A stretch of 64,000 nucleotides of DNA from Gammaproteobacteria bacterium AqS3 (GCA_001750645.1 MEIF01000228.1:7236-71235); one strand, 5' to 3'; shown: positions 5,333 through 23,327, counted from the stretch's first letter. Translations and numbers: made by a program. Notes: a model not told the origin generated them from the letters alone.

Positions 5333-7036
5333 TTAGGAAGAGGGAATGCCCCACAGCTCGATGGCCTTGGCCTTCAGTTTTTTGTGGCGCACCTGAAGGC
5401 GATCTAGATTCCAGTCAGGCAGGTCGCAGAGCTCCTTGGTCATATTGAAGGCGCTCTTCTTATTGGAATATTCGTAGGCTTCTATTTTTTTGTCGAAAGG
5501 GCTGTTTTAGGCAACCCCGTTTTTCCTCCGACTGAGCAGGGTCAAATTGCCCAGCATATTGCGATACTGCTCATGCTGCTCCTCGCTGAACCTCTCAGTC
5601 CAATAGTCTTTTCCCTTAATATTTTGGGGAAGGATGTGCTCAATCGTGATATTTCCCTTGTATTTTCTCTCCACACTTTCATCCTCGTAGGTTTCGTCAA
5701 GCCTTTGCAAAATGGACTTGATGAATTTATTGACCCGAGGACGAGAACCATCATAAAAGTCCTGTTTATCCAGAACATCTTCAAACTTCCATTTCTGATT
5801 ACCTTCAGCAGATAGATTCCTAATAGAGTTCATGACCTTCTCAAAGGTTGCATCCTTCGAGTTAATAGCCTCTACAGCATGGTAACGAGCCGCTTCCCGC
5901 TTGTTTTTATGTTCATCTCTCAAGCTTGCCTGGACATAAGTACGTTCAAACAAATCAACAAACTTTGCAAATAAATCCCAATCTGCAAACTTAATCCGAA
6001 AAGCCATAAATGCTGGGAGCCACTCATCTCTTCCTCCAATTTCGCTCAACAACTCTATGGTTTTAATAACAGGAGGATCATCATTCAAAATTTCGGCGTG
6101 CAGCTCGGCTGATTTGGCAAGAGATGCCGATAGGGAAACTGCAATATTACCTGAATCATTCTGCTTCAACTGATCCGTGTAATAGGGATAAAGCTTTGGC
6201 TTATTGGCTCGATCTCGGTCTTTCATTTCGGAAAATAAATTCAATCTCAAAAAGGAATTAATATTTTCAATTCCAATATTCTCCTCTATAGTTTTCCAAT
6301 TGTTTTCTACTTTTAGAGACTTATCTTCGTTGGAGGCAACTTTCTCCAACAGCACACTTTTAATCAAATCAGCATCGCTTAAAGACTGTCCCCGATTGTT
6401 GAGAACATGAAACATTCGAAAAGATGACTCCCTGTCATCGACCTCAACAAATACAACATACACTTGTCTCAAGAGATACTCCACCAATCTATTCAGAGGC
6501 AGAGTTAAATCTTCCTTAAGAAACTTCTGAATGGCCTCTGAATTATTTCGAAAAACTTTTTCAGTATCCGTATCTTTTTCTGGTTTTTGTTTTATTTCTT
6601 CCCTCAAAACTTGATCAGTGTAAAACCCCCGCTCTTTGTCTCTTACCTCAATAACTGGCCTCGTCAATCTATTAGCAGAAATATGATCCTCATTCAAATA
6701 CATACTTCTCAGCTTAGCTTTTAGTCCTTCATTATTTTTCTTTAATTCTTCATTATTTTCAATGACCCGAACCAATTCTCTTAAAATCAAAGTAAGCGTA
6801 ATGAGGCGCTGCTGTCCATCAACCACTTCAAAACGGTTGCCGTCCCGGATACAGATTAAACCGCCAATAAAGTACTCTCCTTGTTTCTCAGCGCAACTGT
6901 TATGCACGTCTTGCAGAAGCTCCTCCGCCTGATCTTTATCCCAGATATATGGACGCTGATAAGAGGGAATGTAGTACTGCGCACCCCCCAAAAAAGCCAG
7001 CGTTTTTTCCACACTTTGAATCTCAGCCTTCATCAA
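5333..7036 (-). pseudogene. GmrSD-like type IV (modification-dependent) restriction endonuclease with DUF262 N-terminal and DUF1524 C-terminal domains, interrupted by an in-frame TAA at 5507-5509
   Basis: The N-terminus has YQRPYIWDKDQAEELLQD and DGQQRLITLTL (DUF262/ParB-like nuclease domain). The C-terminus has ITIEHILPQN...GNLTLLSRRKNGVA (DUF1524/HNH-like). After the TAA the same frame continues NSPFDKKIEAYEYSNKKSAFNMTKELCDLPDWNLDRLQVRHKKLKAKAIELWGIPSS* to the stop at 5333-5335. The gene is AT-rich. Confidence 0.6.
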
Positions 7037-7082: not shown

Positions 7083-8018
7083 CTATCCAGCCTTGTCGGT
7101 CTTCTTCTGCTGGTCGAGGGCCGACATGGCCGTGGCGACGACGCCGGCGACATTGCCCAGGTCGGCCGGCAGGATCAGGCTGTTGCCCTCCTTGGCCAGG
7201 TGCCCGAACTGCTGGATGTAGTGCTCGGCGACGCGCAGCCTGGCCGCCGTCTCCCCGCCCTGCTCGTTGAGCACATGGGCGATGTCGCGCAGCCCCTTGG
7301 CCGTGGCCGATGCGATCAGCTCAATCTCCCTGGCATTGCCCTCGGCCTCGTTGATCAGCTTCTGCTTCTCACCCTCGGAGATGCGAATCGATTCGGTCAT
7401 CAGACCCTCGGCGCGGTTGATGCGCGACTGCCGGTCGCCCTCGGATATCGCAATCTCGGCGCGCTTTTCCCGCTCGGCGCGCATCTGCTTTTCCATCGCC
7501 TCCATCACGCTGATCGGCGGGCGAATGTCGCGGATCTCATAGCGCAGCACCTTGACGCCCCAGTTCTGCGAGGCCTCGTCGACCGCCTCGACCACCCGGC
7601 TGTTGAGCGCCTCCCGCTCCTCGAATGTCTTGTCGAGCTCCAGCCGGCCGATGGCCGAGCGCAGCGAGGTCTGCGCCAGCTGGCTCGCCGCAAACTTGTA
7701 GTTTTCAATGCCGTAGGCCGTCAGCCTGGCGTCGAACACCTGAATGTAGAGCACGCCGTCAACCGAGACGAGCACGTTGTCCGAGGTGATGCAGTCCTGC
7801 GAGCCGATGTCGAGCACCTCCTCCTTGAGGCTGCGCCTGTAGGCGACCACGTCGATGAAGGGGACCAAAAAGTGCAGCCCGGCCGACAGCGTGCTGTTGT
7901 ACTTGCCGAGCCGCTCGACGATGTACTCGGACCGCTGCGGCACGACAACCGCTGTGCGGTAGAGCGTGTAGACCAGCAGGGCCACTAAAACCAGGGGAAT
8001 GAGATAGTTTTCCATCAT
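7083..8018 (-). CDS. SPFH/band-7 (stomatin/prohibitin-like) membrane protein
   Basis: There is an N-terminal TM segment. The SPFH core contains VVPQRSEYIVERLGKY and ITSDNVLVSVDGVLYIQV. The C-terminus is a coiled coil. The gene is paired with nfeD downstream. Confidence 0.85.
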   Translation of the reverse strand: MMENYLIPLVLVALLVYTLYRTAVVVPQRSEYIVERLGKYNSTLSAGLHFLVPFIDVVAYRRSLKEEVLDIGSQDCITSDNVLVSVDGVLYIQVFDARLTAYGIENYKFAASQLAQTSLRSAIGRLELDKTFEEREALNSRVVEAVDEASQNWGVKVLRYEIRDIRPPISVMEAMEKQMRAEREKRAEIAISEGDRQSRINRAEGLMTESIRISEGEKQKLINEAEGNAREIELIASATAKGLRDIAHVLNEQGGETAARLRVAEHYIQQFGHLAKEGNSLILPADLGNVAGVVATAMSALDQQKKTDKAG

Positions 8019-8528: not shown

Positions 8529-9158
8529 TCACGATTGACGCAGCTGAAGTGCCTGGCTGAGATCGTTCTGAAAGTCCTGCACCAGGGGCTCGACCTGGGG
8601 CCACCAGCCGGGGTCGTAATCCACCTGGACGCAGCGCAGACCGCTGAGGGCGTTGTCCCGAACCAAGCCCTCGATGTACAGGCAGGCCGGGCACCGCAGG
8701 ATTTCCATGCCGAGGGCGACCTGCGGGTAGTGCCAGGGCGGAATGCTCCCAAAAGTCGACAGCTTGCGCGGCGCCTTGACCTCGATCAGATAGAGATGGC
8801 CGTGCATGTCGAGCAGGCCGTCCGGGCTGTAGCAGATGCCCGCAGCCTCGTCGAGCCAGAACGCCTCGGTGTGGCTGATCAGGGCGACGCTGCCGCGGCC
8901 GAATGTCTCGGCGACGCCGGCATCGCGGATGGCGTCCTCCCACTCGATGCCGCGGCGCATGTCGTCATTCTCGTCCCGTTCGGGAATGTTGCCGGTCAGC
9001 TCGTCGAGCATCTCGCTCATCAGGCTGTCGCGGTTCTTGTAGCTGGAGGTCCCCAGCAGCGCACCGATGGTCGAGCCCGACAGCCGGCCGCGCCTGAGCC
9101 GATACCACTCCTCAGAGCGCTGCTCGACCCCCTCTATTTCAACCGCATTGAGCTGCAT
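8529..9158 (-). CDS. YqaJ-like PD-(D/E)XK exonuclease-domain protein
   Basis: The internal Met begins MQLNAVEIEGVEQRSEEWYRLRRGRLSGSTIGALLG, the YqaJ N-terminal motif. A catalytic D...E-V-K motif is present (DGLLDMHGHLYLIEVK). The first 98 residues of track ORF 8529..9452 are GC-frame noise that overlaps the upstream gene's 3' region. Confidence 0.6.
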   Translation of the reverse strand: MQLNAVEIEGVEQRSEEWYRLRRGRLSGSTIGALLGTSSYKNRDSLMSEMLDELTGNIPERDENDDMRRGIEWEDAIRDAGVAETFGRGSVALISHTEAFWLDEAAGICYSPDGLLDMHGHLYLIEVKAPRKLSTFGSIPPWHYPQVALGMEILRCPACLYIEGLVRDNALSGLRCVQVDYDPGWWPQVEPLVQDFQNDLSQALQLRQS

Positions 9159-9192
9159 TGACCGTCGTCCTTTTCGCGCCTCGCCCCGGGTG

Positions 9193-10743
9193 TCAGACCT
9201 GGGTGTTGTAGTCCTTCCAATAGGGTTCGCGCAGTTGGCGCTTGAGGGTCTTGCCCGAGCCGGTGCGCGGGATCTCGTCGATGAACTCGACCGAGCGCGG
9301 CACCTTGTAGCCCGCCAGATGCTCGCGCCCGTAAGCCTGCACTGCCTCGGCGTCGACATCGCTGCCCGGTCGCTTGACCAGCGTGGCGTGCACCACCTCG
9401 CCCCACTCCTCATCGGGGATGCCGAACACCGCGACATCCATGATGTCGTCATGCGACTCCAGCGCCGCCTCGATCTCGGCCGGGTAGATGTTGACGCCGC
9501 CCGAGATGATCATGTCCTTCTTGCGGTCGCAGATGTAGTAGAACCCCTCCTCGTCAAAGTAGGCGATGTCGCCGACGGTCTGCTTGTCGTCGCGCCGGTC
9601 GGCCTCGAATTTCTCCTCGGCCTTGTAGTAGGTCTGGAAGATCGTCCCGCTGCGGATGAACAGCTCGCCGGGCTGGTGCGGCTCGGTGATCAGGTTGCCT
9701 TCGTCATCAAAGAGAAACAGCTCCACCCCCGGGGCCGGCTTGCCGCAGGAGCCCGGCTTGGTCAGCTGGTGCTCGGGCTCGAGAACCGTGTTGATTCCCA
9801 GCTCGGTCGAGCCGTAGACCTCGTAGAGCGACTCGGCGGGAAAGTGCTCGAGATACATCTTTTTGAGGGCGAATGACCACGGGGCGGCATTGGCCACCAT
9901 GAGCCGCATGCTGGCGCGTTCGTACTTGCTGATGACGGCACTGTCCAGCTGGCAGACGCGGCGGATGGGGGTCGGGGCGGCAAAGGTCGAGGTGACCCTG
10001 TACTTCTCGACCAGCCTCAGCCAGTCCTCGGCGTCGTACTTGTTCTGCAGCACGATGGTCTGCCCCATCGCCAGCGAAAAGCCCATGAACCCGAGCGGGC
10101 CCGAGTGGTAGAGCGGCCCGGTGGTGATGTAGACATCGTCCGGGGTGTAGCCGATGAACTCCAGCAGCTTGCCCTGCTGCTCGGGCCGACCCGAACTGGT
10201 GCGATAGGCGCCCTTGGGCTTGCCGGTGGTGCCCGAGGTGTAAATCATCGAAGCCGCCCGGCCGGCCTCGGGCTCAACCCCCGGCGGCTGATCCGAGGCG
10301 GCGTCCAGCAGTGCGTGCGCATCGGTCATTCCCTCGGGCGCCGCACCGTCAAACACCAGCACATGCTCGACCTGGGGCGTGTCGGGGCGGATCTGCTCGA
10401 ACAGCCCGGCGTACTGGGCATCGGTGAACACGATTTCCGCATCGGAGTTGTCGACCACATAAGTGGCCTCCTCTGGCGTCAATCGATAATTCAGCGGCAC
10501 GCTGACCGCCCCCAGCTTGCGGATCGCCACCGTCATCGCCACCAGCCAGCAAGAGTTCTGCCCGCACCAGACGATCTTGCTGTCGGCATCGACCCCCAGA
10601 CCCAGGAGCACGTGCGCCAGACGGTTGGAGTTGGCCTCAAGGGTGTTGAAATCCCAGGCGTCAATGCGCCCGTCGGGGCGATCATCGACAACGGCGAGCT
10701 TGTCGCCGTGGGCTTGGGCAAATAGCGTAACGGGGTCTGGCAT
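9193..10743 (-). CDS. AMP-dependent acyl-CoA synthetase/ligase (paralog of 995..2521)
   Basis: The AMP-binding motif YTSGTTGKPKG is present. Other motifs are YGSTE and DRKKDMIISGGVNIYPAEIE. The C-terminus LREPYWKD is shared with the first paralog. The start is placed at MPDPVTLF. Confidence 0.8.
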   Translation of the reverse strand: MPDPVTLFAQAHGDKLAVVDDRPDGRIDAWDFNTLEANSNRLAHVLLGLGVDADSKIVWCGQNSCWLVAMTVAIRKLGAVSVPLNYRLTPEEATYVVDNSDAEIVFTDAQYAGLFEQIRPDTPQVEHVLVFDGAAPEGMTDAHALLDAASDQPPGVEPEAGRAASMIYTSGTTGKPKGAYRTSSGRPEQQGKLLEFIGYTPDDVYITTGPLYHSGPLGFMGFSLAMGQTIVLQNKYDAEDWLRLVEKYRVTSTFAAPTPIRRVCQLDSAVISKYERASMRLMVANAAPWSFALKKMYLEHFPAESLYEVYGSTELGINTVLEPEHQLTKPGSCGKPAPGVELFLFDDEGNLITEPHQPGELFIRSGTIFQTYYKAEEKFEADRRDDKQTVGDIAYFDEEGFYYICDRKKDMIISGGVNIYPAEIEAALESHDDIMDVAVFGIPDEEWGEVVHATLVKRPGSDVDAEAVQAYGREHLAGYKVPRSVEFIDEIPRTGSGKTLKRQLREPYWKDYNTQV

Positions 10744-12456: not shown

Positions 12457-12546
<90 letters not shown>

Positions 12547-12702: not shown

Positions 12703-13788
12703 ATGGAGAGAAAGATGAGAGCGAGAAATAAGGGTTCGTTTACTTTTATTGATCTTTTTGCGGGCATCGGCGGCATGCGCATCGCCTTTGATCGTGCTGG
12801 CGGGAAATGCGTTTTTACCTCGGAGTGGAACAAGTCCTGCCAGCAGGTCTACGAGGAGCAGTTCGGCGACAAGCCGCACGGCGACATCACGCAGATTGCA
12901 GCCGAGGAAATCCCCGAGCACGACGTGCTTGTTGCGGGCTTTCCGTGTCAGCCCTTTTCGATCGCGGGCGTGTCAAAAAAGAATGCGCTCCAAATGCCCC
13001 ACGGTTTTCACTGCAACACGCAAGGCACACTGTTTTTCGATATTGTCAGGATCGTTGCCCACCACAGACCCAAAGCTTTTCTGCTGGAAAATGTCAAAAA
13101 CCTGAAAAGTCATGACGGCGGCAACACATTCAATGTCATTTATAAAACGCTCACCGAAGAACTCGGCTACAACGTTCAGGCCAAAATAATCAATGCCAAA
13201 TCTTTTGTCCCGCAGCACAGGGAGAGAATATTTATCGTGGGGTTCCGGGATAAGAATCGCTTCAACTTTGAATCCATCAGAATTCCGCCCGCATTCAACG
13301 GCCCAAAATTGAGAACAATACTGCATCCGCAGGATGGCTCGGAGAAGACAGAGGATCCCTATACGACTGGCAACAAGGGCAAGGTTTCAGAGCGATACAC
13401 ACTTTCCGACAAGCTCTGGACTTACCTTCAAAACTATGCTGAAAAACACAGAGCCAAAGGCAATGGATTTGGATTTGGGTTGGTCGGCCCCGATGATGTC
13501 ACAAGGACGCTTTCCGCCCGCTACTACAAGGACGGCTCGGAAATACTCGTCGACCAGGGAAGCCGGCGCAACCCCAGACGGCTGACGCCCAGAGAGTGTG
13601 CCAGACTGATGGGATTTGACGCACCTGATCAAAGTTGCTTCAAAATAGCGGTATCAGACACACAGGCCTATCGACAGTTTGGCAATGCGGTTGTTGTGCC
13701 GGTTGTCGAGGCCGTTGCCAAGCACATCATTCCGTGGATTACCGTAGAAGAAAATATTCCAAATATTCAAGAAAAAGTAGCCCTCTAG
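12703..13788 (+). CDS. DNA (cytosine-5)-methyltransferase, Dcm/M.EcoRII-like
   Basis: Four C5-methyltransferase motifs are present: motif [11 protein letters not shown], motif IV FPCQPFS, motif VI ENV and motif X QFGNAV. The gene is AT-rich and sits immediately upstream of an EcoRII-like endonuclease gene. Confidence 0.9.
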
Positions 13789-13837
13789 CGAATGTGCTGC
13801 CTGTAGAAGTAAGTTCCATGCACGAGAGGAGAATGTT

Positions 13838-15085
13838 ATGAAGCGCGGGTCACTCAAACAATACTTTACCGATGTCGCGGTCAAGCGGCTCAGCACCGTA
13901 GAGGTTGACCTGAAGCGCTCTCACCAGCATGAATTAAATGGGGTCTCCGCGCTTAAAGCAATTTTTGGAGAGACGAAAGAGAGGCTCACATTTCAGGCCA
14001 CCTTTTTATGGCTGGACGATGAACTGGAAAAAGCTGAGGAAGAAGACAAGGGGTTTCTAACCTGGTATGACGCTCGACAGAATGACAAAACGCGATCATC
14101 AGAGTATCGACTGTATTTCAGCTCAACCAATATGATGAATCAGGCTCGCGAAGGCGACAGCATTTTCATCGCACTAAAGCCGGATCGATCACTTTTTGTC
14201 ATCGCCGTTCCATCCCAATCGACTATCAAACAGCAATTGCTATGGCTTTTTGATCTGAAAGACCTATCAGGGTCTTCCTTTGAAGTTAAAGAGGTTAGCC
14301 CCGACAAAGGCCCCGAATCTGATTTTGCAGTCAACTACATATTGGACATCCTTGGCATTAAAAAAACCGAGCCGTCTGATCCTGAACGTTTGGATCATCT
14401 GCTTAAACAGTTTGGCGGTGAGTTTCCGAGAACCCGACGCTTTTCAGATCTCGCTAGGGACAACTGTGAAGATGTCGACCCCCTAGAAGCACCGGATCTG
14501 GCCTTGACGCAATGGTTGGAATTTGAGGAAACTCTCTTTCTCCACCTCGAAAAAAAGATCATCGAAAAGCGCCTGCAAGACGGGTTTGTTGGCTCAGATG
14601 GCGACATAGATGTGGACAGCTTCCTCAAGTTTTCACTGAGTGTTCAGAACCGGCGCAAGGCACGGGCTGGCTTGGCACTGGAAAATCACCTTGAATACAT
14701 ATTCATAAACCATAAATTGGAGTTCGATAGGGGTGCGACAACCGAGAACCGCTCAAAGCCCGACTTCTTGTTCCCCGGCTCAAGCTGGTATCACTGCGAG
14801 AAATTCCCCGCATCACACCTCACGATGCTCGGTGCAAAATCCACCTGCAAGGATCGCTGGCGGCAGGTGCTATCCGAAGCCCGGCACATCCCAAAGAAAC
14901 ACCTCCTCACACTTGAGCCCAGCATCTCAGAGTACCAAACAACCGAAATGAAAAATTCAAACCTTCAGCTGGTTCTGCCAAGAACTTTACATCAAACTTA
15001 CACACGGCAGCAAAGGAGCTGGCTTATTGACTTGGAAGCATTTATTTCGGAAGTCAGGCGGAAACAGACTCAAGCGGGGTTGTAG
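13838..15085 (+). CDS. EcoRII-like type IIE restriction endonuclease (probable CCWGG specificity)
   Basis: The C-terminal half aligns closely with my recollection of the EcoRII catalytic domain. Matching segments are NRRKARAGLALENHLEYIF, KPDFLFP and STCKDRWRQVL. The N-terminus is an effector-like domain. The gene follows a Dcm-type methylase. Confidence 0.75.
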   Translation: MKRGSLKQYFTDVAVKRLSTVEVDLKRSHQHELNGVSALKAIFGETKERLTFQATFLWLDDELEKAEEEDKGFLTWYDARQNDKTRSSEYRLYFSSTNMMNQAREGDSIFIALKPDRSLFVIAVPSQSTIKQQLLWLFDLKDLSGSSFEVKEVSPDKGPESDFAVNYILDILGIKKTEPSDPERLDHLLKQFGGEFPRTRRFSDLARDNCEDVDPLEAPDLALTQWLEFEETLFLHLEKKIIEKRLQDGFVGSDGDIDVDSFLKFSLSVQNRRKARAGLALENHLEYIFINHKLEFDRGATTENRSKPDFLFPGSSWYHCEKFPASHLTMLGAKSTCKDRWRQVLSEARHIPKKHLLTLEPSISEYQTTEMKNSNLQLVLPRTLHQTYTRQQRSWLIDLEAFISEVRRKQTQAGL

Positions 15086-15236: not shown

Positions 15237-17039
15237 ATGATAAACAGGAATCTAAAAAAATATTTGGATAATCTAGAGCAAGAGCCCAAAGCTCTTACTT
15301 CTTATCATGGCGAGCATGATATTGCAGAGGCAATCAAACAAATTCTCAAGCAAGATGGGCAATATGAACTAACGAAAGAAGATATCGCCGAGCGAATTGC
15401 CTTTGATTTTATGCCAGAATATCCAAATTATGATCCGGGTTGGGAAACATACTATGGACCAATGTATATTTTGCCGAATAGTGAAGGGCAAATGATGGAA
15501 TATCCAAGTGTCAGGAGAGTAGACCAAGAAATTCTTAAGTACTGGGAAAAAAGAGCAAAAGAAAGTCAAAATCCTATCTTGTCATCGCGCTATGCTGACC
15601 TAGTCGTTGATTTTTCACCAATAGTCTTAAACAAAAAAGCAAATATTGATCTATTCCGAAAAGTCATAGATTCAAATATAGCTATTTGTGAAGAATTACT
15701 CGCTGACCACTTGGATTGCAAAACCAAAATTGAAAGGGCACTGGTTTTGTCAATTCAAATAAACGATCAAAAACAAATTGAGAATATAAAAAATACGATC
15801 CTAAAATTAGAAGAAATCGCTGCCGTTGACGATGCACCCGGGCTTTGGGGATTTGCTTTCAAGTGGCTGCTTCTAGATTTTCCAAAGAAAATCACTCTGG
15901 ACGATAAAGAAAAAAACGATCTTATAAATAAACTTGAAAGAAGACTGGAAAGAGTTGAGAAGGACCCATGGCTTGCAGAAAATGCTGTCGCTTTGCTCGC
16001 AGAATATTATGCAAGTCAACAAGACGAAAAAAATCTCATGCGTGTTTTGGGTGTTTTAGAAAATTCATTCAAAGCAAATGAACGTCTAAATTCTGACGCT
16101 TTACTACAAACACATATCTATGAACAGATACATGAGATATATCGAAAATATGCAAGTCGATTTAAAGAAGCTGAAGAGGCAAATAAAAGGCTTTCGCGAG
16201 AAATTGGACGGCTTGACCTAGACTGGGAAAAATCTTTGACAAAGATATCCGCTGAAATACAAGTTGAAAAGGAGGATATTGAAAAACACCTAAAAGGTAT
16301 TTTTGGCGAAAACAGGGATGATATATTGGAAGAAGTTATGGTTAGAGTTGCTGTGAACCACTTGCCCATAGAAGATTATGTTAAAAGGCAGCTTGATGAA
16401 ATTTCTGGCAAAAGCCCCTTGCAGTTTTTATTAGAAAGACAAGTCGTTTCAGATGACGGAATTCCGATTGCCAAGCTGTCCAGATTGGATGAAGACTACG
16501 AGAATAATTTTCAAAGTTTTGCTTTGCAATATATGCAATTCGGCTCGTTTTTTCTATCACTTACATTAGACGAACTGCGAAAACGAGTTGCCAAAGAAAC
16601 AGTATTGGAGTATTTTGAAAAATCATTAATTTTTGAAAATGAAGATAAGGAATATTTAGAACGAGCAATTTCTGCATATTGGGATGAAGATTATTTAGTT
16701 GCTTCGCATCTATTTAATCCGCTAATCGAGAGCGGAGTTAGAGAATTAATAAGAATTGGGGGCGGTCAAGTCCTAAAACCTAATGGTTTGAATGGATACG
16801 ATAAAGTATTGCTTGGAAGATTACTGAAAAACAAGGAAATCTTTGAACGTGCATTTTCAGAGGCTGGAACGCATGTTTTGTTTTATTTCAGATTGGTTCT
16901 TACTGAAAGACTGGGGATGAACTTAAGAAATGATTTTGCACACGGAATTGGCAAGAAAAAGTTTTTCGGACATGATGCCTCTGATAGGTTATTTCATATT
17001 TTAATTTGGCTATCGGTTGTAAAGTTAAAAGAAAGTTAA
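15237..17039 (+). CDS. Large uncharacterised protein with a C-terminal HEPN-like Rx4HG motif (LRNDFAHG), putative abortive-infection/defence protein
   Basis: The 600-aa ORF is AT-rich. Its only recognisable motif is R-N-D-F-A-H-G near the C-terminus, which fits the HEPN Rx4-6H signature. It resembles DUF4209 / Abi-like C-terminal families. It lies in a defence island. Confidence 0.45.
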   Translation: MINRNLKKYLDNLEQEPKALTSYHGEHDIAEAIKQILKQDGQYELTKEDIAERIAFDFMPEYPNYDPGWETYYGPMYILPNSEGQMMEYPSVRRVDQEILKYWEKRAKESQNPILSSRYADLVVDFSPIVLNKKANIDLFRKVIDSNIAICEELLADHLDCKTKIERALVLSIQINDQKQIENIKNTILKLEEIAAVDDAPGLWGFAFKWLLLDFPKKITLDDKEKNDLINKLERRLERVEKDPWLAENAVALLAEYYASQQDEKNLMRVLGVLENSFKANERLNSDALLQTHIYEQIHEIYRKYASRFKEAEEANKRLSREIGRLDLDWEKSLTKISAEIQVEKEDIEKHLKGIFGENRDDILEEVMVRVAVNHLPIEDYVKRQLDEISGKSPLQFLLERQVVSDDGIPIAKLSRLDEDYENNFQSFALQYMQFGSFFLSLTLDELRKRVAKETVLEYFEKSLIFENEDKEYLERAISAYWDEDYLVASHLFNPLIESGVRELIRIGGGQVLKPNGLNGYDKVLLGRLLKNKEIFERAFSEAGTHVLFYFRLVLTERLGMNLRNDFAHGIGKKKFFGHDASDRLFHILIWLSVVKLKES

Positions 17040-17138
17040 AGAGGATTTTACTTGCACCTACATTAAGAAGTTTAGGAGGAGCGATGCGATATTAAAACAT
17101 GCAATGCCGAGTAAACCCAGAGTAAATTCTTTGGATTT

Positions 17139-18596
17139 TCAAGCCAAATTAATAAGTTTTTGGACATATTGCAAGTTCAAATATGATCCCGTAGGAATCT
17201 CTCTCATTTTGTATATGACAGCCATAATTCTCCCTTCCTGATTCTGGGATTTTTGTATATGCTTTGAAAAAAGTGCCGAATCAATAGATCCTTCAGCCCT
17301 TTCTATTCTCTGTCCCTGTTTGTAGATTTCTCTAACATTCGGACATAGAAGATAAAAATATGCTTCTATTATTTCAAGAAAGCTCCGATCAGCTTCTCCT
17401 ATCTCCAACCCTGACCTTTCTATTTCATCTCTTAGATAGTCATACCCCTTAATAAGCGATATTTCTCCCTTGGTCACTTGTCTATATAACTCTACCTTCT
17501 TCAATCTCACTATCAATAGTGGAATAATCAAATGCGGAAGAATGTGGTAATTCTTCTCACAATTTCTGAAACTTAAAATTAAAGATCTCATTATGCTATC
17601 TAAATCTCTAAGTGAGATATCGAAATAAGAAAAGAATTTGGGTATAAACTCTTGAGCTCTAACCATTCCTGTTTTCTGGTCTGGAGCACTGTATGAAACC
17701 CTTATCAAACCGTCAAAAGCTATTTTAAGTTCATATCGTTCAATCAAATGTTCAAAAAAATGATCTAAGTCGGGCTCAGGAATAGAGAATTCGAAATCAA
17801 AAAATCTTCTCAAATAAATGTCTGAAGCAATATCGCCATATACAGATTGGATAGATTTTTCTAGCTGAGCTCTATCCATACCCAATATGAACACTATGCT
17901 TTCAACATCAAATATATGTTTGACTCTTTCCAAGAGTTCTATCGCAAAAGTTGGGCGGCATCTGTCCAATTCATCAATAATGAAAATTAGAGGCCGATCA
18001 TTTTTCTTTCGGTATTCCTGTGCTAGTCCTTGCAAATTATCTTTCAAAATTTTTTTACTCTTATTATGCTTAATGTACTGATCGACAACCTCATCTTTTT
18101 CAGTTTTCATGAAATTTTTCAAACTATTCTTTAGCTTAATAAGTAAATCCTCAATGTTCAATACAATTCCCAGTTCTATTTTCAAATAAGTTTGCAATCC
18201 CAATAGTAATGTTCTCAGAAAAATACATGCTTTCTTACAAAAAGATATATTTGGTTCATTAAAGTGTTTATAGATCTGGCCTACTAGTGCAACCAGTGGA
18301 TCGTTATGAAAATCATCCTCCCAGGCATTGAAGTAAATAGTCTCAAACTCTCTATTCTTCAAATCCGCTTCCAACCGTTTCAGAAAAAATGTCTTCCCAC
18401 TTCCCCAAGAACCGTCAACACTGATAACCAACGGCTGAGTTTGGCCGTCGATAAAAGTGATCAGTTTCTCTGCCAGTTCTCTCCTACCTAGAACATCATC
18501 GCGCCACACATCATCCTTCGGCACTTCCGCCTCCAGCACCTTCGCAGCAATCTCTTTCTGCCGCTGCCCAAAGTCACTCACCCCACCCTCACTCAT
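17139..18596 (-). CDS. KAP-family P-loop NTPase
   Basis: The Walker A motif is VISVDGSWGSGKTFFLKRL. The KAP motif is YFNAWEDDFHNDPLVALV. The Walker B motif is LIFIIDELDRCRP. The gene is AT-rich. Its start overlaps the stop of the upstream amine oxidase gene by 8 bp. Confidence 0.8.
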   Translation of the reverse strand: MSEGGVSDFGQRQKEIAAKVLEAEVPKDDVWRDDVLGRRELAEKLITFIDGQTQPLVISVDGSWGSGKTFFLKRLEADLKNREFETIYFNAWEDDFHNDPLVALVGQIYKHFNEPNISFCKKACIFLRTLLLGLQTYLKIELGIVLNIEDLLIKLKNSLKNFMKTEKDEVVDQYIKHNKSKKILKDNLQGLAQEYRKKNDRPLIFIIDELDRCRPTFAIELLERVKHIFDVESIVFILGMDRAQLEKSIQSVYGDIASDIYLRRFFDFEFSIPEPDLDHFFEHLIERYELKIAFDGLIRVSYSAPDQKTGMVRAQEFIPKFFSYFDISLRDLDSIMRSLILSFRNCEKNYHILPHLIIPLLIVRLKKVELYRQVTKGEISLIKGYDYLRDEIERSGLEIGEADRSFLEIIEAYFYLLCPNVREIYKQGQRIERAEGSIDSALFSKHIQKSQNQEGRIMAVIYKMREIPTGSYLNLQYVQKLINLA

Positions 18597-20722: not shown

Positions 20723-21895
20723 ATGTCCGCTCGAGTTGAACAAGCCAATGCCGAGGTCCTGCGCCAGTGCCGCGAGCAGCTGGGCTTTGAAATTGATGAG
20801 GTGGCAAGAAAAGTCAAAAGCATTGCCGCCATTGAAGCCGACGAATTGAAACCCACTTTCAAGCAGCTGAAAACACTTTCTGATCTATATGAGGTTCCTG
20901 ACTGGGTGTTTATTTCTGATGCCATTCCAGAAAGGTTTCGGCTGACTTCCTCGCCAAGCTATCGTCTATTTAAGAAGGCTGGTGCCCCGCTTAATCCCAA
21001 AGTCAACAAACTGCTCATTCGGGTTGAACAGCTGCGTGAACTCGTCATTGACTTTCAGGAAGATCAGGATGAACAATCAGATCCGTTTGACCCGCCTGAA
21101 TGGACTGAAGATGTCAAGACCATGGCCAAGCGTGTGCGCGAATGGCTGGAATTGGACTCGGGCAACAGGCGGCACTGGTCTTTTGATGAGCTGCGCGAAA
21201 AGCTGGAACAGAAAGATGTTTTTATTTTGATGACCAGCAAATATAACGGGCCTTGGAAGTTCAGCGTCGAAGAGGATTTTCGCGGGCTGTGCATCTTTTA
21301 TGGCCTCCTGCCCATTGTGGTCATCAATGATTCTGATAATAAAAAAGCTCAGTCATTTTCGTTGATACATGAATTAGGGCATCTATTAAGGCGAGAAAGT
21401 ATTTTTGATCACAAAAGTATTTTGGACGATGACAAATGGGACAGAGATGATGAGGAGCGTTGGTGCGATGAATTAGCTGAAGAGGTTTTGATGCCGTACG
21501 AACTGGTGAATCCGAACTCCTACCGTTCATTCAATGAATTAAAAGATAAGGATATTCAAGTATTGGCTAAAGAATTTATGGTCAGTCCCTATGTCTTCTG
21601 TTTTAGACTGCAATCTTTGGATCTGATCACCGAAGACAAAGCCAATAAATTTAAACGTCAGATCAAAGAAAAATCACTTTCGCAAAAAGCTTCCGGCAGC
21701 GTCCCTATTTCACGAAAGCGTCATAAAGAGGCACTGCGTCAGTTCGGCAGCATATACACAAAGACTGTTTGGCAGGCTTATTATGATGATGAATTAGATT
21801 TGTTAAGGCTGGGAAAGTTGTTTGAACTCAATAAACTGCATTATGTTCAAGAAATGCGGAAAATTATTCCTTCTACAATAACGCAGAGTGGATAG
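20723..21895 (+). CDS. HTH (XRE-family) and ImmA/IrrE-family zinc metallopeptidase fusion protein
   Basis: The N-terminal helix-turn-helix is LRQCREQLGFEIDEVARKV. The ImmA/IrrE (DUF955) core has a HEXXH motif, SLIHELGHLL. The gene overlaps the downstream PIN-like gene by 8 bp. Confidence 0.75.
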   Translation: MSARVEQANAEVLRQCREQLGFEIDEVARKVKSIAAIEADELKPTFKQLKTLSDLYEVPDWVFISDAIPERFRLTSSPSYRLFKKAGAPLNPKVNKLLIRVEQLRELVIDFQEDQDEQSDPFDPPEWTEDVKTMAKRVREWLELDSGNRRHWSFDELREKLEQKDVFILMTSKYNGPWKFSVEEDFRGLCIFYGLLPIVVINDSDNKKAQSFSLIHELGHLLRRESIFDHKSILDDDKWDRDDEERWCDELAEEVLMPYELVNPNSYRSFNELKDKDIQVLAKEFMVSPYVFCFRLQSLDLITEDKANKFKRQIKEKSLSQKASGSVPISRKRHKEALRQFGSIYTKTVWQAYYDDELDLLRLGKLFELNKLHYVQEMRKIIPSTITQSG

Positions 21896-22406
21896 GTATT
21901 GCTTAGACGCGAATACTCTGACCAATCCATTTTATGAAACCTACCCACGGAACTTAGAAATTTTTCAAAACATGTGGGACTTATTAGCTGCCAATCAGAA
22001 AAGCTTGGTTCTCATCAAGCCAATTTACGATGAAGTCTTACAATTTTGTGAACGAGAAGCCAAAGATTCTGATTCAAACTCTTTAGTGAATTGGCTAGAG
22101 GAACATAATTTTTCATATATCCCTATCACATCAGAAGACGAAAGACTCGCGCTGAATATTCGCCAAGAATACAAGCCCGGCCCCAAAGGTATTAGCGTTA
22201 CTGACTCAAAATTGATTGCGTATGTAGAAAACCAAAGGCCAGACTTATTGGATTCATTTTGCTTGGTAACCGAAGAGAGTCCTCAAACTGATAAGTCGAA
22301 ACTTAAAAAGAAAAACTACAAAATTCCGGCCGTCTGCGAAGAGCGGGGAATAAGGTGCATTAATCTGATTGATCTGCTGCGTGAATTAAGTTCCGGAACT
22401 GAGTAA
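21888..22406 (+). CDS. PIN-like (DUF4411-like) putative nuclease, partner of the ImmA/IrrE protein
   Basis: The N-terminus is MDRYCLDANTL, a PIN-type start. The protein has acidic residues spaced as in PIN folds. ImmA/IrrE and DUF4411 genes are known to pair in this way. Confidence 0.5.
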   Translation: MDRYCLDANTLTNPFYETYPRNLEIFQNMWDLLAANQKSLVLIKPIYDEVLQFCEREAKDSDSNSLVNWLEEHNFSYIPITSEDERLALNIRQEYKPGPKGISVTDSKLIAYVENQRPDLLDSFCLVTEESPQTDKSKLKKKNYKIPAVCEERGIRCINLIDLLRELSSGTE

Positions 22407-22430: not shown

Positions 22431-23327
22431 TTACCGCTGCGCGGAATATGAATATCCATCACCAATCTTCCAGACTCCACGCTCGCGGAAGGCGGGGATG
22501 GTCTGGCGCTTGGCGGCGTTGGTCAGCGCCGGTGCTGACAGTCCGTGTTCGCGGATGAAGTCGGACAGCCGAACCGGCATCTCTCCCCTCAGATAGGTCG
22601 TGCGCTTGTGCAGCGATTCCAGCAGGGCGAAGTGGAGCATATTCCCAAACCGTCGCGCACCGCGCATCGCCGGATGACTGAGGTCAAAGCCGGCAAATGA
22701 CCGGTAGTAGTCCCGACGATCAGGAAAGCGAATCATCACGCGGGGCAGCCCCAGGAGCTGCAGCTGAAGGTTGATGAGCTCGCGACCAATGCGCCCGTTG
22801 CCGTCGACAAAAGGATGTATCCATTCAAAGCCCAGGTGAAACTGCGCAATGCGCTCGACAAAATGCTCCCGTGCGGGGCTGAGATATTCCTGCAGCAGCT
22901 CGGCCAGCAGCCCCTCAATGTTTTCAGGCGGCGGTGCGATGTGCGGGCCGACCTGAACATACTCGCCCAGGTCGCGAAAGCGCCCCGCAATGGTCTCGTC
23001 AATCGGCAGCATCAGCATCTGGTGCAGGTGCAGGATGATCTCCCGATCCAGCCCGCCGGAATATCGGCGCATGAAGCCGATCACCTGCCCCAGACTCGCA
23101 GCCTCCTGAACCTCGCGCAGCTGCACCTGGCGCTTGGGTATGCCCCCCGCGAGAATTTGATCGGTTTCCTCCAGCGTCAGCGTTGAGTTCTCAATGGCAT
23201 TGGAGTGGTAGACGCTCTCGGGAACTTCTGTGCCATCAATGACTTCCAGCAATTCCTCTCGCCCCGGAGCGAGCTCAAAATACTGCTCCAGCAGTTCATC
23301 AATGCGCTGTTGTCTGGATGGTGTCAT
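22431..23327 (-). CDS. Fic-family protein (AMPylator), class II with N-terminal inhibitory motif
   Basis: The Fic motif HPFVDGNGRIGR is present. The N-terminal SNAIEN matches the (S/T)xxxE(G/N) auto-inhibitory helix motif. Confidence 0.85.
   Translation of the reverse strand: MTPSRQQRIDELLEQYFELAPGREELLEVIDGTEVPESVYHSNAIENSTLTLEETDQILAGGIPKRQVQLREVQEAASLGQVIGFMRRYSGGLDREIILHLHQMLMLPIDETIAGRFRDLGEYVQVGPHIAPPPENIEGLLAELLQEYLSPAREHFVERIAQFHLGFEWIHPFVDGNGRIGRELINLQLQLLGLPRVMIRFPDRRDYYRSFAGFDLSHPAMRGARRFGNMLHFALLESLHKRTTYLRGEMPVRLSDFIREHGLSAPALTNAAKRQTIPAFRERGVWKIGDGYSYSAQR

Follow-up and report, generated by a model that had tools for sequence, protein, structure and literature searches.

A stand-alone DUF4209-family HEPN protein and a KAP NTPase as separate defense candidates beside a type II restriction–modification pair

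Introduction

Do a HEPN-motif protein and a KAP-family nucleoside triphosphatase (NTPase) that are encoded side by side make up one defense system, or did they arrive separately? The question is raised by positions 15237–18596 of a 64,000-nucleotide stretch of DNA (hereafter the window; all coordinates are counted from its first letter) from Gammaproteobacteria bacterium AqS3 (GCA_001750645.1 MEIF01000228.1:7236-71235). A preliminary description, made from the sequence alone, presented the two genes, for proteins of 600 and 485 amino acids (aa), as a candidate novel two-gene defense module, with the hedge that they might be two single-gene systems. Here, we find that the two genes are most likely not partners and that their adjacency is an accident of insertion. 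Both are satellites of restriction–modification (R-M) systems, separately and with different habits. Biologically, the neighbor that matters to the HEPN gene is the upstream R-M pair, which the preliminary description missed; the link between this HEPN family and R-M is already in the literature. We read the locus, with a probability of about 0.72, as a mosaic island at a tRNA-Ser gene composed of three independently acquired modules (a Dcm/EcoRII pair, a stand-alone HEPN protein, and a stand-alone KAP NTPase), with the HEPN protein as a predicted RNase forming a second line behind restriction.

Co-occurrence of the Two Families

The two genes and the spacer between them are as follows.

15237..17039, plus strand: 600-aa DUF4209/EMARD_N-family HEPN protein (PADLOC PDC-S39), predicted metal-independent RNase
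17040..17138, no strand: convergent spacer of 99 bp between both stop codons
17139..18596, minus strand: 485-aa KAP-family P-loop NTPase (PADLOC PDC-S20)

These coordinates agree exactly with the preliminary description, which had put the distance between the convergent open reading frames (ORFs) at about 100 bp, and the motifs that it quoted are present. Both genes are real rather than chance ORFs, with at least 255 close homologues of the HEPN protein (2,116 clusters at 50% identity in a representative library) and at least 3,570 homologues of the KAP protein. Their convergent orientation rules out an operon.

We searched 55 DUF4209 loci (723 kb), taken from one-genome-per-species contigs, for KAP proteins; 37 of these loci include at least 2 kb of downstream sequence and 30 at least 5 kb. 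A profile built from 120 KAP homologues was run against all stop-to-stop ORFs with filters off. None of the 55 loci encodes a KAP protein (best E = 0.21, vs 2.9e-153 for the window KAP as a control). In the reverse direction, a DUF4209-family profile found no member in any of 80 KAP loci (537 kb) from metagenomes (best E = 0.57, vs 3e-276 for the control). The Pfam-annotated neighborhoods of the closest relatives on long contigs likewise contain no DUF4209–KAP pairing.

The nearest homologues of the two proteins also differ sharply in identity, at 74% for the DUF4209 protein and 45% for the KAP protein. PADLOC files both proteins as separate single-gene ("S") candidates, PDC-S39 and PDC-S20. 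The proposed two-gene module thus does not hold up, with co-occurrence in 0/55 and 0/80 loci, and the option offered as a hedge, two single-gene systems, is the one to which both the co-occurrence searches and the PADLOC filing point.

Linkage to Restriction–Modification

Directly upstream of the HEPN gene, and on the same strand, lies a type II R-M pair.

12703..13788, plus strand: C5 cytosine DNA methyltransferase (Dcm-type), methylase of the type II R-M pair (Pfam DNA_methylase 6.6e-89; PADLOC MTase_II 1e-148)
13838..15085, plus strand: EcoRII-family type II restriction endonuclease (Pfam EcoRII-C 3.1e-66, aa 234–403; PADLOC REase_II 2.1e-33)

The defense context that had been proposed for the locus is borne out. 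The endonuclease gene begins 49 bp 3′ of the methylase gene, on the same strand, and the DNA of the pair is ~65–70% identical to plasmid dcm-EcoRII(-vsr) modules. These plasmid relatives are annotated in the order dcm, type II endonuclease, vsr; no vsr (very-short-patch repair) gene adjoins the pair in the window (12703–15085). Pfam has no match for the first 230 aa of the endonuclease.

Proteins with R-M domains are concentrated on one side of DUF4209 genes. They account for 25/90 proteins encoded at −1/−2 of DUF4209 homologues and for 4/86 at +1/+2 (Fisher p = 2.8e-5). The upstream domains include N6_N4, D12, EcoRI, and C5 methylases, TaqI, EcoRV, HNH, GmrSD_N, Eco57I, and type I/III components; the +1/+2 neighbors are heterogeneous by bulk Pfam annotation. 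Of the 14 relatives that share at least 50% identity with the window protein and whose contigs reach 2 kb or more upstream, 12 carry an R-M or type IV gene at −1/−2, usually on the same strand and separated by −4 to 28 bp. DUF4209 genes lie on the 3′ side of at least nine unrelated R-M types.

EcoRI-type methylase with a GmrSD_N–HNH nuclease
TaqI with a LexA-fused N6/N4 methylase
PD-(D/E)XK nuclease with a LexA-fused C5 methylase
EcoRV with a D12 methylase
Eco57I-like type IIG enzyme
MvaI/BcnI
ScaI with a C-protein
Type I HsdS and HsdR
Dcm/EcoRII, directly upstream on the same strand (the window)

Anantharaman et al. (2013, PMC3710099) wrote of bacterial DUF4209 members "occurring in R-M related operons"; they found R-M linkage to be common to 16 HEPN clades and proposed, by analogy with PrrC–EcoprrI, that an RNase backs up restriction. 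The KAP relatives keep different company. They are typically nested in type I R-M operons, with HsdS (8 times), HsdM (3 times), and HsdR/ResIII (4 times) as their ±1 neighbors, and also in comparative locus L141 (such L handles denote our comparative loci throughout).

Several features of the DUF4209 loci are worth recording in their own right. LexA DNA-binding and S24 self-cleaving peptidase domains are fused N-terminally to N6/N4 or C5 methyltransferases in four loci (L004:1212-2741, L009:3595-5124, L010:1115-2644, and L015:5066-6640). These genes are divergent from the DUF4209 gene and adjoin TaqI or PD-(D/E)XK endonuclease genes; the fusion may be an SOS-responsive or autoregulatory stand-in for a controller protein. 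A DUF4209 gene 71% identical to that of the window stands with a C-protein, ScaI, and methylase set (L138:3017-15803) next to genes for a large serine recombinase and for conjugation (TraG-like, TraC-like, and PrgI), which places this set on an integrative or conjugative element. In a further relative (54% identity), the gene directly 5′ of DUF4209 (L012:3125-4543) encodes a toxin-type RES-domain protein with a HEPN/RES N-terminal domain, not an R-M protein.

Short ORFs with a duplicated HsdM C-terminal tail (…EISFTRYFYKPQPMRTLEEIRADILALE…) occur at L141:4526-4894 and L141:6706-7008 and also in L056 and L058 at ~7689-7940. The duplicated tails precede cassettes (GmrSD_N with a small HEPN protein; KAP) that are inserted between hsdM and hsdS, which suggests that genes become embedded in type I R-M operons by recombination. 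L141 also carries a Cas13a gene after hsdS.

The DUF4209-Family HEPN Protein

The 600-aa protein belongs to Pfam DUF4209 (PF13910, named EMARD_N in newer Pfam), as the preliminary description had guessed. The match covers aa 497–590 and profile positions 1–87 of 89 at 35.4 bits (1.1e-8; cutoff 22.3), and it is also precomputed on the identical NCBI protein. Public (NCBI-type) gene calls begin later than ours, giving 591 aa (9 codons fewer) for the HEPN protein and 480 aa for the KAP protein. A second match, to DUF7380 (PF24098) at aa 100–183, reaches 25.7 bits, slightly under its cutoff of 27. The PADLOC model PDC-S39 (PDLC05012), which has no curated cutoff, matches aa 93–571 over profile positions 91–574 of 615 (4.5e-35). 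This score, at 119 bits, is moderate and places the window protein in a divergent clade.

16725..17006, plus strand: HEPN domain, aa 497–590 (Pfam DUF4209 match; HEPN superfamily per Anantharaman et al. 2013)
16914..16946, plus strand: predicted catalytic motif G560-M-N-L-R564-N565-D-F-A-H569-G570 (R-x4-H, polar residue after R)
15534..15785, plus strand: DUF7380-like region, aa 100–183 (PF24098), within a conserved N-terminal patch (conservation 87–100% in 137 relatives)

DUF4209, the family of human C6orf70/ERMARD, was placed in the HEPN superfamily and predicted to be catalytically active in 2013 (Anantharaman et al., PMC3710099). The superfamily motif is R-x4-6-H with a polar residue directly after the R, and the roles of the R, the H, and the polar residue are those established by mutating RNase L, PrrC, and RloC, work that is summarized there. 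We evaluated conservation in 137 diverse full-length family representatives aligned with hmmalign. LRNDFAHG, at aa 563–570 of the window protein, falls in a G-x-N-x-R-N-x3-H-G signature whose R-x4-H core is kept in 136/137 relatives (H569 100%, R564 99%, N562 99%, N565 96%, and G570 98%), far in excess of chance. A second HEPN motif, E-x3-[KR], is equally well conserved (E498 100%, R502 98%) and lies within a predicted helix at 486–507. At the sequence level, the HEPN assignment made from the motif alone stands. An additional conserved patch near the N-terminus (E52, F56, P75, P90, Y102, W103, R106, R118, and Y119) is a candidate sensor or regulatory surface.

An AlphaFold2 model of the protein is almost wholly helical, with a predicted local distance difference test (pLDDT) score of 76. 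Searched with Foldseek against the PDB, the full-length model resembles TPR-like repeats only weakly, and these matches concern the protein body. No solved structure is related to the protein by sequence or profile, no transmembrane segment is present, and no phage-encoded homologue was found.

The family has a conserved, stand-alone architecture of ~600 aa. The preliminary description had held that HEPN nucleases usually need a partner NTPase or sensor; this does not apply to DUF4209, whose rare fusions (to AlbA_2/Schlafen with HATPase_c_4, and to HipA-N with a helix-turn-helix, or HTH, domain) include none to an NTPase. As a pointer to an NTPase partner, fusion partners were accordingly ruled out. 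The unusual architectures seen in the family (P0253, P0343, L054:1-2979, and L055:10001-12895) comprise SLFN_AlbA_2 + HATPase_c_4 + DUF4209 (1019 aa), Couple_hipA + HTH_3 + DUF4209 (801 aa), a DUF4209 gene directly 5′ of a type I HsdR gene, and an ORF of 965 aa whose C-terminal extension of ~360 aa matches nothing in Pfam.

The nearest relatives, at 58–74% identity over the full length, are found in very distant phyla. This close clade spans bacteria of the CPR, several other bacterial phyla, and one archaeon, and consists mainly of uncultivated lineages (CPR, Aminicenantes, and Ignavibacteria).

The KAP NTPase

The assignment of the 485-aa protein to the KAP NTPases is likewise sound. Pfam KAP_NTPase (PF07693) matches aa 39–339 at 135.5 bits (2.9e-39; cutoff 20), and PDC-S20 (PDLC04959) matches over the full length (aa 20–484; profile positions 5–458 of 464; 2.3e-107). 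The KAP motif NAWEDDFHNDP is at aa 89–99, and both Walker motifs are present.

18390..18413, minus strand: Walker A GSWGSGKT, aa 62–69
17964..17987, minus strand: Walker B IFIIDELD, aa 204–211, followed by conserved RCRP

In 40 homologues, G61, W63, G64, G66, K67, and T68 are invariant in the Walker A region, as are D207, E208, D210, R211, C212, R213, and P214 in the Walker B region. The nearest homologues are 35–45% identical. After the KAP domain, a C-terminal region of ~145 aa (aa ~340–485) contains no known domain. A crude hydropathy test gave no confident transmembrane helix (maximum 19-residue Kyte–Doolittle mean 1.43, in the insert at aa 116–150, vs the usual ~1.6).

Two other identities were considered for this gene. 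It is not QatA, as the match reaches 70.9 bits against an NCBIfam cutoff of 600, covers aa 34–259 only, and is not accompanied by qatBCD; the gene lies between an amine oxidase gene and that of the DUF4209 protein. PifA also matches the protein only in part. A recurrent theme of KAP with some HEPN protein was prompted by L141, where a small HEPN_RiboL-PSP protein lies two genes from the closest KAP relative, but that HEPN protein is not seen again among the other 80 KAP loci.

With both proteins thus assigned, neither is novel or uncharacterized in the sense first proposed: PADLOC already lists them as PDC-S39 and PDC-S20, families that go back to genes lying within BREX, DISARM, or type I R-M systems, and the HEPN nature of DUF4209 was recognized in 2013. 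Both genes are fresh members of catalogued single-gene candidate families.

Composition and Boundaries of the Island

The methyltransferase, endonuclease, HEPN, and KAP genes are the four genes of an island at 12.6–18.6 kb with 35–50% GC, set in a metagenome-assembled genome of ~65% GC. Its left edge is marked by a tRNA gene.

12457..12546, plus strand: tRNA-Ser(GGA) (ARAGORN), left edge of the low-GC island

Just downstream of this tRNA, GC content falls from ~0.65 to ~0.50. The right edge is abrupt and coincides with the stop codon of a copper amine oxidase gene (65% GC). The start codon end of the KAP gene overlaps this stop codon by 8 nt (18589–18596), so that the GC boundary of the island is razor-sharp; the KAP gene may be transcribed by read-through from the host amine oxidase gene. 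The 3′ end of the tRNA has no att-like direct repeat at the right edge, and no convincing boundary repeats were found for the island. The spacer at 17040–17138 contains no terminator-like or promoter-like site (fold z-score −0.65), and none of the promoter or terminator predictions at the locus rises above shuffle expectation.

The genes of the island differ in composition. The R-M pair has a GC content of ~0.49–0.50 and a GC content at third codon positions (GC3) of 0.55–0.59 (0.505 and 0.59 for the methylase gene), and its relative synonymous codon usage (RSCU) is uncorrelated with that of the HEPN and KAP genes (r ~ 0). The HEPN gene has GC 0.359 and GC3 0.295, and the KAP gene GC 0.365 and GC3 0.352. 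Genes of the close DUF4209 clade have 30–37% GC in every locus, even beside neighbors of 50–55% GC (L022, L054, and L003). Low GC is therefore a property of the mobile DUF4209 clade, a clade that is highly conserved, horizontally mobile, always low in GC, and recurrently docked 3′ of or inside R-M operons.

A joint arrival of the HEPN and KAP genes was considered on the grounds of their shared low GC and codon usage. These are not specific, as the DUF4209 clade is low in GC everywhere and the KAP gene resembles an unlinked GmrSD gene 11 kb away equally well (RSCU r = 0.62). The likeness of the Dcm/EcoRII pair to ordinary plasmid modules of proteobacteria also speaks against that reading. Joint arrival keeps a slight residual chance, with nothing besides composition in its favor.

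Other Genes in the Window

The GmrSD gene (5507–7036, minus strand) encodes a modification-dependent (type IV) restriction endonuclease of the GmrSD family (GmrSD_N 2.6e-34 and GmrSD_C 1.9e-16). It occupies its own patch of ~39–40% GC between high-GC host genes and is a separately inserted defense gene. To the right of the island, two plus-strand genes that overlap by 8 nt (20723–21895 and 21888–22406) form an islet of 40–44% GC. The first encodes an HTH domain with Peptidase_M78 (ImmA/IrrE), with RmrA-like and capP-like PADLOC matches and a weak match to "spr1629 repressor/antitoxin"; the second encodes a DUF4411/PIN-like protein. The pair looks like a toxin–antitoxin or defense module. Next to it, a Fic/DOC-family protein is encoded at 22431–23327 on the minus strand (Pfam Fic 2.9e-22; PADLOC SoFic and PDC-S04 matches), with a GC content of 0.595 that is nearer the host value. 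An ORF with a YqaJ-like viral recombinase/exonuclease domain (8529–9452, minus strand; 9.2e-9) lies in high-GC DNA and may be a prophage remnant.

Discussion

How might the two proteins act if they are separate modules? Because the HEPN protein carries a single R-x4-H motif, it would be expected to homodimerize and thereby form a composite active site, and the dimer would be a metal-independent endoribonuclease, of the type that leaves 2′,3′-cyclic phosphate ends, as judged from the biochemistry established for RNase L, PrrC, and RloC mutants. This RNase would be kept inactive by the helical N-terminal body of ~480 aa. Once infection or the failure of restriction is sensed, autoinhibition would be lifted, and RNA cleavage would lead to translation arrest, either as a second line of defense or as abortive infection, following the logic of PrrC–EcoprrI. 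The variety of R-M partners, combined with the conservation of the HEPN protein, makes masking by one specific restriction enzyme unlikely. We instead favor relief of autoinhibition by a generic infection signal, which is the weakest part of the model. The KAP NTPase alone would work as an NTP-driven switch coupled to its C-terminal region, in the manner of other single-protein KAP defenses.

Several observations weigh against this account. Many loci come from metagenomic contigs of short length, and sampling was biased by the peptide patterns with which loci were retrieved. Codon usage in the HEPN gene is close to that in the KAP gene (RSCU r = 0.65), although the KAP gene comes equally close to the distant GmrSD gene. 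The HEPN gene begins 151 bp after the EcoRII gene and has a GC3 of 0.30 against 0.55–0.59; given this gap and mismatch, the inference of co-transcription drawn from other DUF4209 loci does not extend to DUF4209 and EcoRII here. The same range of R-M partners that points to a generic signal speaks against physical masking by one enzyme of the kind known for PrrC. In the structural model, the catalytic loop has low pLDDT, and a Foldseek search for the four-helix up-down bundle of solved HEPN domains, made with the C-terminal domain alone, gave nothing significant (best E = 1.9), with the HEPN proteins Csm6 (5yjc) and 2q00 among its top ranks. Finally, PDC-S39 and PDC-S20 are among 145 predicted PADLOC candidates, and a later validation study took other PDC systems.

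That the HEPN and KAP genes form one two-gene system, in which the NTPase senses infection and licenses the nuclease and the two genes are expressed from separate convergent promoters, is highly improbable. The genes are adjacent, with similarly low GC and similar codon usage, and PrrC and RloC are precedents for ATPase-regulated HEPN nucleases. Against this stand the complete lack of co-occurrence in the 55 and 80 loci, where the controls worked, and around the closest relatives; the unequal divergence of the nearest relatives; an orientation that excludes an operon; and the fact that neither family contains a DUF4209–KAP fusion. The compositional likeness loses its force given the clade-wide low GC of DUF4209 and the equal resemblance of the KAP gene to GmrSD. 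A looser relation, in which independent modules synergize and the KAP protein boosts the HEPN nuclease or the R-M pair without obligate linkage, as the KAP-type protein Tmn does for PrrC, Gabija, and Septu, fits the common ecological niche of two families of R-M satellites. Tmn, treated there as a KAP NTPase, co-occurs and synergizes with the R-M-embedded HEPN nuclease PrrC (bioRxiv 10.1101/2022.08.21.504612). However, that study credited the synergy to the sensory ABC ATPase domain of the partner, which DUF4209 proteins lack, the window KAP has no confident transmembrane helices of the Tmn type, and no co-occurrence is seen at the level of loci; we regard this relation as improbable here.

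Two further readings concern the HEPN gene itself. It might be a defense or toxin gene wholly independent of R-M, brought next to R-M genes by shared integration hot spots ("embedding"). The HEPN protein remains 58–74% identical beside at least nine unrelated R-M types, its gene is foreign in composition to the R-M neighbor both here and in L022, and some relatives (L003, L012, L040, L043, and L053) have non-R-M neighbors. The duplicated HsdM tails around the L141 cassettes also suggest recombinational insertion hot spots. The strong polarity of the association, 3′ of R-M, on the same strand, and with gaps of −4 to 28 bp, suggests co-transcription instead, and the upstream/downstream asymmetry (p = 2.8e-5) and the same R-M linkage in 16 HEPN clades argue in the same direction, so that we consider full independence unlikely, if a real contender. 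The gene could alternatively encode an addiction or stability toxin, for example for post-segregational killing, or an RNA-processing or regulatory factor of a mobile R-M cassette, rather than an antiviral effector. HEPN domains are common among the toxins of toxin–antitoxin systems, one relative is fused to HipA-N and HTH (modules of toxin–antitoxin type), another is on a conjugative element, and phage-encoded homologues were not found. No small antitoxin-like gene (MNT or similar) is present here or recurs in the other loci, however, and the candidate family in PADLOC has its origin in genes embedded in defense systems; this role too seems improbable.

The mosaic island with three independent modules is thus the reading that we prefer, and its value as a locus is modest: the window is a clean natural example of two catalogued single-gene candidates beside a type II R-M pair. 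The comparative data on DUF4209 sharpen the 2013 prediction by revealing a large, conserved, and mobile family that sits 3′ of many unrelated R-M operons. More speculatively, the close DUF4209/EMARD_N clade could be a universal backup RNase cassette that is indifferent to R-M type and senses a generic consequence of infection or restriction failure, a PrrC-like logic without the ATPase. We hold this only as a tentative idea, on the doubtful side of even odds; if true, it would provide the first biochemical function for a family that includes human ERMARD. Its members could help to decide whether layered immunity of the "restriction then RNase" kind extends well beyond PrrC, and they could provide biochemical access to the human ERMARD family.

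Comparison with Known Systems

The closest catalogued counterpart of the HEPN protein is PDC-S39, described in a "guilt-by-embedding" preprint (Payne et al. 2024), with which it has in common the ~600-aa single-gene architecture and the embedding in, or adjacency to, R-M systems. The PDC models were built from RefSeq, whereas the clade of the window protein consists mostly of uncultivated lineages. With the C6orf70/ERMARD HEPN family of Anantharaman et al. (2013), the window protein shares PF13910 membership, the R-x4-H and E-x3-[KR] motifs, and the R-M operon context.

PrrC, encoded with the EcoprrI type I R-M system, follows a like logic, in which a latent HEPN RNase encoded with R-M provides a second line once restriction has been defeated. 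PrrC has an N-terminal ABC ATPase and is both embedded in and masked by one type Ic enzyme. In contrast, the DUF4209 protein lacks an NTPase domain, its helical body is TPR-like, and its R-M partners are many, unrelated, and mostly of type II; it is not a member of the PrrC family. HEC-08, a validated DUF3644 HEPN protein embedded in Hma systems, is likewise a single-gene embedded HEPN protein, and its defense is abolished when the motif histidine is mutated. It differs in family and in layout: its HEPN domain is N-terminal, and zinc-ribbon domains come after it.

For the KAP protein, the relevant comparison is with validated single-protein KAP defenses (EF_KAP and relatives). Tmn and EF_KAP have transmembrane helices, whereas the crude hydropathy test gave none with confidence for the window KAP. 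The overall plan is the same, with a KAP domain followed by a C-terminal region, and the validated single-protein KAP NTPases require both Walker B and their uncharacterized C-terminal region for defense (PLoS Biol 2026, PMC13552941).

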